10,490 nt of DNA. It comes from a virus. The DNA lies in the UHGV virus genome UHGV-1619017, one strand, 5' to 3'. Shown here in pieces: positions 7,113-10,490 of this stretch (its first letter is position 1; every line of letters starts with the position of its first letter). A program made the position numbers and the translations under genes. The notes beneath the pieces were generated by a model. That model saw only the letters and a list, made by a program, of their open reading frames with translations. It was not told the DNA's origin and searched no databases.

Positions 7113-7270
7113 GGTTAAGCCCTAAATTCGGGCGCGGCGTGAAGGTTCTTTTGACGAGCTAACAATACCAACTTTGTTATTTAGTCAATAGCATTAGTAA
7201 AATAAAATCTATTAACACTTATATTGTTATGTGCTTTAATTTTAGTTTTCTAACACAAATTATTAGAGTT
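7113..7270. promoter_or_regulatory. AT-rich divergent intergenic region between the capsid candidate (minus) and the ribbon-helix-helix gene (plus); putative promoters and operators
   Basis: About 160 bp, markedly AT-rich from 7160. Repeated motif ATTGTTA/TAACAAT: TAACAATA at 7160-7167 (inverted), TTGTTAT at 7175-7181, TATTGTTAT at 7222-7230. Minus-strand TTGACT -35-like hexamer (reverse complement of 7183-7188) without a clean -10. Promoter positions not resolved. Confidence 0.35.
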
Positions 7271-7680: not shown

Positions 7681-8139
7681 ATGAGTCACGCGAATCCATC
7701 AAAAACACAATATCGCTTAATGCTGGCGATCGCGTCAGCTATACCAACCAGCCTGAATCCCCCTGCTGGCTATCCCGCTGTTGTTGATGATTGTTTTCAG
7801 TATTACGGTGAAGACATTCTGGGACAGTCGAAAGCACTAAAACAGTTGTGCAAAGCCGGGATTCTTCACTGCATAGGCGATCCGGATGATTTTGTTGTCA
7901 TGCTGGCAGATCGTGACTCTTTTCTGCTGTCCTGGAAAGCCGGGGCGCGCGAAGCGCGTTTGGGGAATGGCATTGGCTACATAGACTATAGCGATTGCCC
8001 GCTGGCATTTGCTGGTGGATATATGCATTGGCATGAGCGAAATAGAGGCCGTCAGCGTCAGTATCGCTTGAGTGACTTTAACGTCTGTCACGGTTTCGAA
8101 GAAGCTGACAGCCAGGACATCTGGCTTCAGGAGCCTTGA
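7681..8139 (+). CDS. Hypothetical Cys/His-rich protein, likely co-transcribed with the upstream ribbon-helix-helix gene (152 aa from ATG 7681)
   Basis: Strong SD AGGGGGG 6 nt upstream of ATG 7681. In-frame ATGs at 7651 and 7660 would overlap the stop of the upstream gene (7661-7663), so the two genes are tightly coupled either way. Contains several Cys and His (C..YY, HC, DCP, HWH, CH) that could bind metal. No family recognised. Confidence 0.4.
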   Translation: MSHANPSKTQYRLMLAIASAIPTSLNPPAGYPAVVDDCFQYYGEDILGQSKALKQLCKAGILHCIGDPDDFVVMLADRDSFLLSWKAGAREARLGNGIGYIDYSDCPLAFAGGYMHWHERNRGRQRQYRLSDFNVCHGFEEADSQDIWLQEP

Positions 8140-8459
8140 TCCCCCTTCCCTTCCCAAATCTCCCTGTTTCTTTGGTTATTCAGTGCGTTTCGTTGGTTGC
8201 ATTCGTCGATCGTGCTGAATAACTGTTCAGCGTATGTCGGATACTTGTTTAACAGCACTGGCGTGTCCTCTGGCACTAAACAAGGGGAGTAATCAATCAG
8301 ATTTGCCTGCGGCTTGCTGGTGGCTTCTACGGTAATTTTCACTGGCACGCTGGTTGATGGCTTTTGCCCGTTCCCGCTGCATCCTGATAACGTCATCAGG
8401 CACACGCACATCGTTAATCCCAGCACGGCGCAACGCATTTTCAAGGCGAGTGATTTCAT
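8127..8459 (-). CDS. o-spanin (Rz1-like outer-membrane lipoprotein spanin subunit), start overlapping the i-spanin gene (110 aa precursor)
   Basis: Strong SD GGGAGGAAA upstream of ATG 8459. Signal peptide ending in lipobox LSGC (MKSLALKMRCAVLGLTMCVCLMTLSGC); mature part is Pro-rich and short with an extra Cys (SPCLVPEDTPV). Overlaps the i-spanin ORF by 167 nt out of frame (8293-8459), the classic overlapped spanin arrangement. Confidence 0.65.
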   Translation of the reverse strand: MKSLALKMRCAVLGLTMCVCLMTLSGCSGNGQKPSTSVPVKITVEATSKPQANLIDYSPCLVPEDTPVLLNKYPTYAEQLFSTIDECNQRNALNNQRNREIWEGKGDQGS

Positions 8460-8793
8460 TCTGGCTTTCCTCCCGCTGTTTGATCAGTCTGTTATTAAGT
8501 TCGGTTGTTTTGCGCTGGTAGTCTTTTTCCAGTTCTTTGATTCTTTCGTTTTCGACCTGCATGGCAGAGCGTGCGCCTTCACTTAACTGCAATGCGGTAG
8601 AAAGCGTGTTGTTCTCGCTTTCCAGTTGTGATTTTGAGTCTTCAAGCGACCGGACATACCTGATGTGTTCGATAACTGCCGTCGTTGTTCGGTAAATTCC
8701 AGAAATGGCTAAAAGCGCAATTACAATCAAAATTATCTTTTTCAAAACCACCCTCTTTAGTTTTTTTGGTGTTAAAAGTGTACCGTTTTGCAT
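8293..8793 (-). CDS. i-spanin (Rz-like inner-membrane spanin subunit) (166 aa)
   Basis: Short basic N-terminus (KKLKRVVLKK), a single hydrophobic transmembrane segment (IILIVIALLAISGIY), then a long charged, coiled-coil-like periplasmic region (SLEDSKSQLESENNTLSTALQ...ERIKELEKDYQRKTTELNNRLIKQREESQNEITRLENALRR). Same architecture as lambda Rz. Its 3' end contains the start of the lipoprotein gene in another frame. Confidence 0.65.
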   Translation of the reverse strand: MQNGTLLTPKKLKRVVLKKIILIVIALLAISGIYRTTTAVIEHIRYVRSLEDSKSQLESENNTLSTALQLSEGARSAMQVENERIKELEKDYQRKTTELNNRLIKQREESQNEITRLENALRRAGINDVRVPDDVIRMQRERAKAINQRASENYRRSHQQAAGKSD

Positions 8794-8818
8794 CCTTTTG
8801 TGTGCTTAAATGGTGTTG

Positions 8819-9622
8819 TTATGGTTCCTTTTTGGTGTTCTTTTGGAGCGCATCGATAACGCCTTGTGGCATGATTAAACTGATTGCCGGACTCATTACT
8901 GCATCGTCCAGTAGAGAACCTGTTAACGTGATTGCGACTGCGTTCTCTAAACCTTTGGTTGCCTGAGTTGTTGCCGTTTTAATGCGGTCAGCAAGGGCTA
9001 TGACACTCTCACTTGCTGAATTAATTCCGAAGAGTGAAACTTCAGCTACTGTTACCGCTTCCCGTAAAGCATCAATTTCATCCTGAGTAATGTCCGGAGC
9101 CTGTGCTGCCCCTCCACCAGCCTGTCCACCATCACTATCACCACCAGCACTCCCGGCAGCTTCAATTTTTGCGTTTATGGCGTTCATGGCGGTATTCAGA
9201 TCGTCAAGTTTCAGCGCCGCCAATGCGTCCGTTAATGATTGCGGGATGGAAACATTCCCCATCCCCTCTACCAGGGCGAACGCTGGCGCGGGGATCAGTT
9301 CATTACCTTTTGCGTGGCACTCCCAGCCAATCTTCATCTGTAACAACTCTGATGGCGTGGTGTATGGGGAAAGAGAGTCAGCCAGTGATGAAGAAGACTT
9401 GCTGGCCTCATTGAGCTGTTCGGAAAATCCAAGCAATTGAGTCGTCCAGGCCGACACTGAATCAGGATAGGTTTTATCAGGGTGAACCATTTCCTGTATT
9501 GCGCTCGCGAGTGACGAGGCTTTTGAAGAAGCCGCCAGGCTTATGGTTATTGATTCCGGTGTGGATGCACCAGCACCAGACAGAATTTGGAAGGCTTTAA
9601 CTTCACCTATTGAATCAAGCAT
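8819..9622 (-). CDS. Hypothetical protein, two-part with Ser/Ala-rich N-terminal half and Gly-rich linker (267 aa)
   Basis: ATG at 9622..9620 overlaps the TAA stop of the upstream PAAR-like gene (TAATG, 1-nt overlap), indicating translational coupling. Low-complexity linker AAGSAGGDSDGGQAGGGAAQAP. No transmembrane segment, no catalytic motif I can recognise. Antisense plus-strand ORFs here (9090..9440, 9103..9414) are artefacts. Confidence 0.45.
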   Translation of the reverse strand: MLDSIGEVKAFQILSGAGASTPESITISLAASSKASSLASAIQEMVHPDKTYPDSVSAWTTQLLGFSEQLNEASKSSSSLADSLSPYTTPSELLQMKIGWECHAKGNELIPAPAFALVEGMGNVSIPQSLTDALAALKLDDLNTAMNAINAKIEAAGSAGGDSDGGQAGGGAAQAPDITQDEIDALREAVTVAEVSLFGINSASESVIALADRIKTATTQATKGLENAVAITLTGSLLDDAVMSPAISLIMPQGVIDALQKNTKKEP

Positions 9623-9906
9623 TATGCGACCTGAAAAATATCCTCGCCGTTAGCGATAACAGAACCACAAGAAAGCGGATCGCCTACGCAGACTACTCCC
9701 TTTCCACCTATTGAATACCATGCCCGTGTCGATACAGCCGATCCGGGATGTGCACTGTTGCCATCTGTATGGCTGGGAAACATGGCACCATCCACAACAA
9801 CTGGCTTACCGTTGACGGTGAACCAGGGAACGGTTTCAGCTACCAGTCGCGGCGGAAATCCTCCGTGACCGGAACAAAGTGTGTCGCTGGTGGCTATTGC
9901 GCTCAT
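9622..9906 (-). CDS. PAAR-like small protein, candidate spike-tip protein of a contractile injection apparatus (94 aa)
   Basis: ATG at 9906..9904 with AGGAGA 6 nt upstream. Three repeated beta-turn segments with the spacing of PAAR repeats but degenerate motifs: SDTLCSGHGGFPP, VNGKPVVVDGAMFPSH, GKGVVCVGDPLSCGSVIANG. Compare canonical GD..C..HGG.I, INGKPAAR.GD, VGD...HGG.I. Memory-based, no HMM run. Confidence 0.4.
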   Translation of the reverse strand: MSAIATSDTLCSGHGGFPPRLVAETVPWFTVNGKPVVVDGAMFPSHTDGNSAHPGSAVSTRAWYSIGGKGVVCVGDPLSCGSVIANGEDIFQVA

Positions 9907-9953
9907 TCTTCATCTCCTGGTTATTCGCCTATTGTCATCACTTTGTTATTTCG

Positions 9954-10172
9954 TCACTCAAAGAGAGAGTGAAATCACGGAACATTTAAAATTCCCGTTT
10001 TGTTCTCAAATTGTTCTCACTTCTATCCAAGTGCCCGGCAGGCGATTAAAGATATTCTCAAAACAACCTCAATTATGACTCTTATTTATCTCTAATTATG
10101 TGGATTTTCGATGTCTTCTCTTTTAAAATCATGATTTGATTCTCAAATGTGTCTCAGAAGTGGAGCAAGAAG
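9954..10172 (+). promoter_or_regulatory. parC: parC-like centromere and promoter region upstream of parM, with TTCTCA-core direct repeats
   Basis: TTGTTCTCA at 10000-10008 and again at 10011-10019 (11-bp register), a degenerate third copy in phase (TTCTATCCA from 10022), and further copies TATTCTCAAAA at 10053-10063 and GATTCTCAAA at 10138-10147 just upstream of the parM ribosome-binding site. Imperfect inverted repeat TCACTC-N7-GAGTGA at 9954-9972. Possible sigma70-like -35 TGGATT (10101-10106), 17 bp, -10 TAAAAT (10124-10129). Position upstream of parM matches the parC-parM-parR layout. Region also holds the divergent promoter for the minus-strand operon starting at 9906. Confidence 0.5.
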
Positions 10173-10490
10173 ATGCGCATTTTTATCGACGATGGTTCAA
10201 CAAATATCAAAATGCTGTGGGAACACGACGGGGAAACTCGCACGCACATCAGCCCTAACAGCTTTAAGCGCGGATGGTCAGCAACATTTGGTGCTGGCAA
10301 GCCATTTAACTATGTCATTGACGACGAAAAGTATTCGTATGATTTGATCTCGCCAGATGTTCTGCCGACGAATAACGTGGAATGGCAATACAGCCCGCTT
10401 AACGTCCTGGCTGTTCACCACGCCCTGCTGACAAGTGGCATTGAGCCGCAGGAAGTAGAAATTGTGGTTACGCTGCCACTGGCGGAGTTT
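10173..10490 (+). CDS. parM: ParM/StbA actin-like plasmid segregation ATPase (type II partition), N-terminal 106 codons; gene continues beyond the window
   Basis: ATG at 10173 with GGAG about 8 nt upstream. Translation [106 protein letters not shown] closely parallels plasmid R1 ParM as I recall it ([37 protein letters not shown]). Absent from the ORF track because no stop occurs before the window end; the track ORF 10147..10347 is an out-of-frame artefact. Confidence 0.9.

Follow-up and report, generated by a model that had tools for sequence, protein, structure and literature searches.

The 10,490-nucleotide stretch of DNA analysed here (the window) carries a set of 11-bp direct repeats just upstream of the partition gene parM. 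On sequence grounds, the repeat region at 9989-10158 very probably serves as centromere and operator (parC) for a partition cassette of type II (ParMRC, R1 family) in a D6-like phage-plasmid, with the iterons arranged around the par promoter and the divergent phage operon served by a late promoter of its own. This assignment draws on the anatomy of the repeats, their statistical excess, their conservation and co-travel with parMR, and the families to which ParM and ParR belong. An earlier note on this DNA had proposed a parC-like centromere shared between parM and the divergent operon; its first half, an R1-like parC upstream of parM, is supported by the presence of parR in relatives and by conserved, phased repeat cores, and the shared-promoter half is not.

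Source of the DNA and gene neighbourhood

The sequence identifies the window as part of an E. coli phage-plasmid of the D6-like type, related to P1. Over the segment from 9600 to 10490, identity is 89% with phage D6 and 99.4-99.8% with two plasmids of ~90 kb from E. coli, pPSS-10_3 (L001) being at 99.4%. The same 891-bp segment is matched by 121 PLSDB plasmid records, and 112 records match the full window over at least 80% of its length, the top identity being 98%.

Homologues of the tail sheath and major capsid proteins of P1 are encoded on the minus strand, as is a four-gene operon with its end at 9906 that codes for a PAAR-like protein, a UpfB homologue, and overlapping Rz-like and Rz1-like spanins (Table 1). 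The PAAR-like spike tip and the spanin pair that had been attributed to this operon are thus indeed encoded there. In the cryo-EM structure of P1, UpfC is the monomeric spike tip and UpfB is the 'tripod' protein at the spike tip (PMC12810830). The two spanin ORFs, of 166 and 110 aa, are equivalent in position to the overlapping P1 genes ppfA and mlp, whose annotations read merely 'periplasmic function' and 'membrane lipoprotein precursor'. The repeat array lies in the ~266 bp that separate the tail-spike/spanin operon from parM, scanned here as 9907-10173.

ParM and ParR

All 106 residues of ParM encoded in the window are identical to those of pPSS-10_3 ParM, which contains the Pfam StbA_N domain (1.7e-69) and the ParM C-terminal domain and matches the R1 ParM structures 1mwk and 4a62 with an E-value of ~1e-111. 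By these sequence matches it is an R1-family ParM. The window ends inside parM, before parR, whose presence is predicted from relatives that are 96-99.8% identical. The earlier note had expected parR downstream of parM, and it was found in every relative in which that region was read. A 112-aa StbB/ParR is encoded 12 bp after parM in pPSS-10_3 and D6, in six IMG/VR relatives parM is directly followed by a comparable ORF (the PF10784 proteins span 112-126 aa), and StbB/ParR also follows parM in four plasmids of other parM lineages. The D6-type ParR matches Pfam Plasmid_stab_B (PF10784; 3e-11) and, over residues 3-74, the ribbon-helix-helix ParR/StbB of pB171 par1 (PDB 2jd3; E 2e-6), the only solved structure that it matches.

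ParR proteins encoded beside arrays with a CTCA core have in common an N-terminal strand, (R/K)K(V/I)(M/L/I)(I/F/L)YLR, and a C-terminal NLxxSLPD tail. The beta-strand reads RKKVMIYLRP in the D6 type and RRTIAFKLNP in an R1-type plasmid, where the iterons are A-rich with an ACCC core; this correlation agrees with iteron specificity tracking the ParR strand.

A second par-like module lies 3' of parR, outside the window, and occupies 7882-9078 in pPSS-10_3. It consists of a terminator hairpin (7900-7920) followed by GGTGC-type repeats 11 bp apart (7986/7997), with GTGGTGC recurring near 8103-8114, and then genes for a 213-aa ParA-like ATPase and a 94-aa protein. This gene pair begins 280 bp after parR in the relatives.

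Anatomy of the iteron array

Some ten 11-bp units, direct repeats that all read along the plus strand, lie in the gap between the upf operon and parM; they have the core (T)TCTC(A/T), the consensus wtnTTCTCAaw, and the layout 3 + 4 (+1) + 2 (Table 1). Positions 6 and 8 of the unit are C in all ten copies, and position 7 is T in nine of the ten. The three groups do not keep a continuous 11-bp register, the core-to-core gaps between them being 41 and 52 bp, and the solitary unit I8 is out of phase with both group B and group C. Units I1, I5, and I6 are degenerate within the window; in I1 (9989-9999) the core has decayed to TTCCCG, and its D6 counterpart reads TTCTCA. In group B the CTC trinucleotides begin at 10057, 10068, 10079, and 10090, in columns that are invariant or nearly so among the relatives, and group C is invariant in all of the relatives, even that with 76% ParM identity. 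The parM ATG (10173) comes 15 bp after the end of the array.

Table 1. Coordinates of the parMR region and the divergent operon in the window
Feature	Coordinates	Strand	Remarks
Overlapping Rz-like and Rz1-like spanin genes	8127-8793	-	ORFs 8293-8793 and 8127-8459; PHROG Rz-like spanin 1.6e-15, 2.8e-5
P1 upfB homologue	8819-9622	-	tripod protein at spike tip
PAAR-like spike-tip gene, P1 upfC homologue	9622-9906	-	first gene of the operon
Candidate Lpa-type late promoter	9931-9951	-	12-mer AAATAACAAAGT (9951-9940), 3 nt, -10-like GACAAT (9936-9931)
Iteron group A	9989-10021	+	three 11-bp units: I1 AAATTCCCGTT, I2 TTGTTCTCAAA, I3 TTGTTCTCACT
Iteron group B	10052-10095	+	four units in exact 11-bp phase: I4 ATATTCTCAAA, I5 ACAACCTCAAT, I6 TATGACTCTTA, I7 TTTATCTCTAA
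Predicted sigma-70 parMR promoter	10101-10129	+	-35 TGGATT (10101-10106), 17-bp spacer, -10 TAAAAT (10124-10129); weight-matrix scan
Solitary iteron-like unit I8	10113-10123	+	GTCTTCTCTTT, in promoter spacer; CTTCTCT conserved
Iteron group C	10137-10158	+	I9 TGATTCTCAAA, I10 TGTGTCTCAGA; ~+1 to +22 of predicted transcript
parM Shine-Dalgarno sequence	10162-10165	+	GGAG, read from sequence; invariant in alignment A1
parM, first 106 codons	10173-10490	+	extends past the end of the window

The two perfect tandem copies recognized previously are exact matches to TTGTTCTCA at 10000-10008 and 10011-10019, 11 bp apart, and the two 'dispersed copies' at 10052-10060 and 10137-10145 are both present and conserved. 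A degenerate in-phase third copy had been placed after the tandem pair (10022-10032), but this is not conserved in relatives, and the conserved third unit instead precedes the pair, at 9989-9999. Five further units, at 10063-10073, 10074-10084, 10085-10095, 10113-10123, and 10148-10158, were absent from the earlier note.

The 9-mer TTGTTCTCA itself, allowing up to two mismatches, is not enriched across the window (35 matches versus 36.8 expected), and the repeat signal lies in the 5-mer core and its phase. Five of the seven plus-strand copies of TCTCA in the 10,490 bp fall inside 9907-10173 (at 10004, 10015, 10056, 10141, and 10152), and the minus strand of that interval has none. Autocorrelation of 4-mers across 9986-10160 peaks at lag 11, with 11 matches against a mean of 1.2 in shuffled sequences; this count was reached by one of 5000 dinucleotide shuffles, and when the maximum over lags 5-40 is taken, 3 of 1000 shuffles reach the observed lag-11 value. 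Period 11 is dominant in the window, in D6, in L016, L020, and L024, and in the R1-type plasmid used as a control, which has a 5+5 array of 11-bp units with the core ACCC.

Two other features of the region were considered and set aside. A 35-nt block at 9985-10019 resembles that at 10122-10156, suggesting a duplicated module of TTTAAAAT plus two iterons with a second promoter at 9987-9992. In D6 this similarity is conserved at the iterons alone, and the second promoter was rejected for want of a -35 and because D6 lacks the upstream TTTAAAAT, which is also changed in pPSS-10_3. Between the late-promoter motif and the first iteron there is also a palindrome, TCACTC-AAAGAGA-GAGTGA (9955-9973), which is disrupted in D6 (TCATTC...GAGTTA); as a candidate operator, TCACTC-N7-GAGTGA was rejected since it is restricted to the sublineage to which the window belongs.

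The candidate parMR promoter and a proposed mechanism

The only conserved sigma-70 candidate upstream of parM is TGGATT-17-TAAAAT, predicted by weight matrix. Of the plus-strand candidates it scores highest in the window, in D6, and in L015; in L016 it ranks second. Its -35 lies at -70 to -72 and its -10 at -47 to -49 relative to the ATG. Its two hexamers are fully conserved in the D6 clade, and GTGGAT and TTTTAAAAT are so in all 16 sequences. The candidate is weak by consensus (8 of 12 positions match), and a stricter consensus scan for promoters and terminators, whose threshold it does not reach, found nothing in 9800-10300. The predicted promoter would place the parM start site near 10136. 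Groups B and C flank it, with group B just upstream, I8 inside the spacer, and I9-I10 at about +1 to +22.

From this arrangement, and by analogy with related systems, we infer ParR binding, the position of the promoter, autoregulation, and centromere activity. On the model of the homologous R1, pB171, and pSK41 systems, ParR, a ribbon-helix-helix protein, would bind cooperatively as dimers, one to each iteron, and the ParR-bound DNA would wrap into a ring or helical segrosome. The segrosome would capture the ends of ParM filaments, capping and stabilising them as they grow, and the filaments would push sister prophage plasmids apart. Because iterons lie upstream of the predicted promoter, within its spacer, and at +1 to +22, ParR binding would also be expected to repress parMR transcription.

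Conservation of the array among relatives

We compared the regions upstream of parM in D6, pPSS-10_3, and 20 IMG/VR contigs. In 16 distinct sequences of the D6 clade, conservation is 98% at the CTC cores and 83% at the other positions in 9989-10136 (Mann-Whitney p = 1e-6, a figure inflated by the relatedness of the sequences). When distant relatives are added (alignment A1), the invariant columns are those of the cores, part of the predicted promoter, and the leader. Some near-identical elements differ from each other by exactly one 11-bp unit: in L014, a third perfect TTGTTCTCA is present as an 11-bp insertion (L014:2300-2345, equivalent to 10000-10021 of the window), and five of the plasmid matches (H8-H12) align over 902 bp rather than 891 bp, with one extra 11-bp unit in group A.

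More distant relatives retain the same pattern in otherwise dissimilar DNA. In L016-L019, with ParM 94% identical, and in L020, with ParM 76% identical, the spacers are largely unalignable, yet there are groups of three to five units that keep both the TCTC(A/T) core and an exact 11-bp phase. In a Providencia NDM-1 plasmid whose ParM is 70% identical, CCTCA/TCTCA units recur every 11 bp upstream of parM, and the neighbours upstream of that array are not phage tail genes. Within the 91-kb D6 genome, 11-bp-phased pairs of plus-strand TCTC[AT] occur at the parM upstream region only, which also has the highest TCTCA density, six per 300 bp, the next best being three. Conservation of the repeats in related elements, on which the parC proposal had been made to depend, is therefore found in both core and phase, and the repeats are co-inherited with parMR. 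Since the array is conserved upstream of parM across these relatives, including one in a non-phage context, it is part of the parMR cassette rather than of the phage late operon.

The segment at 10147-10172 (ATGTGTCTCAGAAGTGGAGCAA), comprising the last iteron, the leader, and the Shine-Dalgarno sequence, is invariant even in L020, which is otherwise unalignable upstream of parM. This invariance could reflect either strong constraint or a recombination boundary.

A separate candidate late promoter for the divergent operon

The spike-tip/spanin operon is preceded by a sequence resembling a phage late promoter. The 12-mer and -10-like hexamer at 9931-9951 (Table 1) are fully conserved in all 16 sequences, and an identical 12-mer, the second of two copies in the window, lies upstream of the major capsid gene (7171-7182, minus strand), followed by TATTGT; from its sequence and position this second element is likely a D6-type late promoter. 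In D6, variants of the 12-mer with a -10-like hexamer 3 nt later are found upstream of the homologues of lydA, R, 23, upfC, and mat, and an lpa homologue is also present in that genome. LP23, a late promoter annotated in P1 (AAGTGACTT-N4-TAAAAT), has a box similar but not identical to that of the D6 type. Applying the LP23 spacing (box, N4, -10) to the D6-type motif yields no -10, and N3 after the 12-mer gives one. We assign 9931-9951 as an Lpa-type late promoter with moderate confidence, and the divergent operon is most likely driven by this element, which is its own and lies outside the array. The predicted minus-strand start site would be near 9924. The suggestion in the earlier note that the array 'has to host' the promoter of the minus-strand operon is not supported, as the late-promoter-like element is outside the region which that note had delimited, ~40 bp past the last iteron.

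The ParR-parC complex might nonetheless control the divergent operon as well, acting as an upstream barrier or architectural element for the late promoter or by occluding a weak sigma-70 promoter. The array does start only ~40 bp from the late-promoter motif, and the reverse complement of an iteron contains TTGAGA (10009-10004), which matches TTGACA at five of six positions and would provide the -35 of the best minus-strand sigma-70 candidate, TTGAGA-17-AATGTT (10009 to 9981). However, this candidate has a poor -10 that L015, L016, and L020 do not share, the operon has its fully conserved late-promoter-like element outside the array, and the same arrays are found upstream of parM where there is no adjacent phage operon. 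P1 parS similarly adjoins LP23 with no coupling annotated there, and we know of none. Such a dual role for the centromere is therefore unlikely. That formation of a partition complex influences phage gene expression, as had been supposed, is likewise unsupported, because the minus-strand operon has its own conserved motif outside the array, and we saw no sign of a ParR effect on the minus-strand promoter.

A more specific form of such coupling, in which occupancy of the leftmost iterons sets the basal or induced level of the spike-tip/spanin operon, for instance through the iteron-embedded -35 (TTGAGA) or through changed DNA architecture upstream of the Lpa-type promoter, we regard as quite unlikely. 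If true, expression of lytic genes would be tied to the state of plasmid maintenance.

Other explanations of the repeats

There is very little likelihood that the repeats bind a protein other than ParR, such as the 94-aa partner of the ParA-like ATPase, a replication initiator, or a phage regulator (C1 or Lpa). The proximity of the second par-like gene pair to parR makes the 94-aa protein a conceivable ligand, but the repeats upstream of the ParA-like pair are distinct, with GGTGC as their core. Replication origins, too, typically contain iterons, but there 17-22-bp units beside a rep gene, a DnaA box, and Dam sites would be expected; the units here are of 11 bp, compared to 19 bp for the P1 RepA iterons, and the D6 rep gene is ~11 kb away, with no other TCTCA array there or elsewhere in D6. 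Moreover, the arrays accompany parMR into a plasmid of different context. The view that the repeats are functionless, pyrimidine-rich, low-complexity DNA generated by slippage would account for the slippage-like 11-bp steps in copy number and for the single perfect tandem pair that yields most of the lag-11 signal in the window, but it is hardly credible given that cores are selectively conserved while spacers diverge and that the same core and period recur in arrays with unalignable flanks (L016, L020, and L024).

Relationship to known partition systems

The preferred reading, a parC site serving parMR, places the array closest to parC of R1 and R100 (stbA-stbB of NR1). In R1, two sets of five 11-bp iterons surround a 39-bp promoter region that is repressed by ParR (PMC2241845, PMC5016525). 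The sites are alike in lying immediately upstream of parM-parR and in having about ten direct, one-strand 11-bp iterons grouped around the operon promoter (predicted here); the ParM proteins are 54% identical, and ParR is in each case a small ribbon-helix-helix protein with a conserved C-terminal tail. They differ in the iteron core, which is TTCTCA here rather than of the A-rich AAACCC type, in the layout, which is 3 + 4 (+1) + 2 with gaps of 30-41 bp rather than 5 + 39 bp + 5, and in the residues of the ParR beta-strand. The replicon here, unlike R1 and R100, is a tailed-phage prophage, and the site abuts a phage late operon.

The D6-like elements resemble plasmid pB171, with its double par locus, in having type II and ParA-type loci side by side. 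The two pB171 loci are divergent and have a common central region, whereas those of the D6-like elements are in tandem, each with its own repeats.

As in P1 parABS, a plasmid-prophage centromere is found near the promoter of late structural genes. In P1 (AF234172, L025:6826-6995), parS is ~70 bp upstream of LP23, and a centromere beside a late promoter is thus not unusual in this phage group. The P1 system is nonetheless of an unrelated partition type (type Ia; ParA/ParB/IHF, with heptamer and hexamer boxes) at another genome position. In the D6 lineage, which lacks P1 parABS, the interval between the upfC and hrdC/dmt homologues holds ParMRC, and the region upstream of P1 upfC contains the C1 operator Op68 and Pdmt in place of a par array.

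Discussion

The site described here is probably a parC of the R1 family, carried by a phage-plasmid and set apart by its iteron core and its 3 + 4 (+1) + 2 arrangement. The GenBank record of D6 and the PLSDB gene tables of the related plasmids show no feature at this site, and our literature searches found no description of a D6-like parC and no measurements of binding, stability, or incompatibility for this element, although the D6 genome paper, which these searches did not cover, may mention the repeats. In mechanism, the site would go no further than the R1 paradigm unless its link to the late operon turned out to be real. Its significance lies in its role as the likely cis-acting partition site, and so a probable determinant of partition incompatibility, of phage-plasmids that are widespread in E. 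coli, Salmonella, and Shigella. From the sequence comparisons, the TTCTCA-core iterons appear to define a ParR specificity class distinct from that of R1, and such a class would bear on predicting which phage-plasmids and plasmids can coexist and on the engineering of D6-like vectors.
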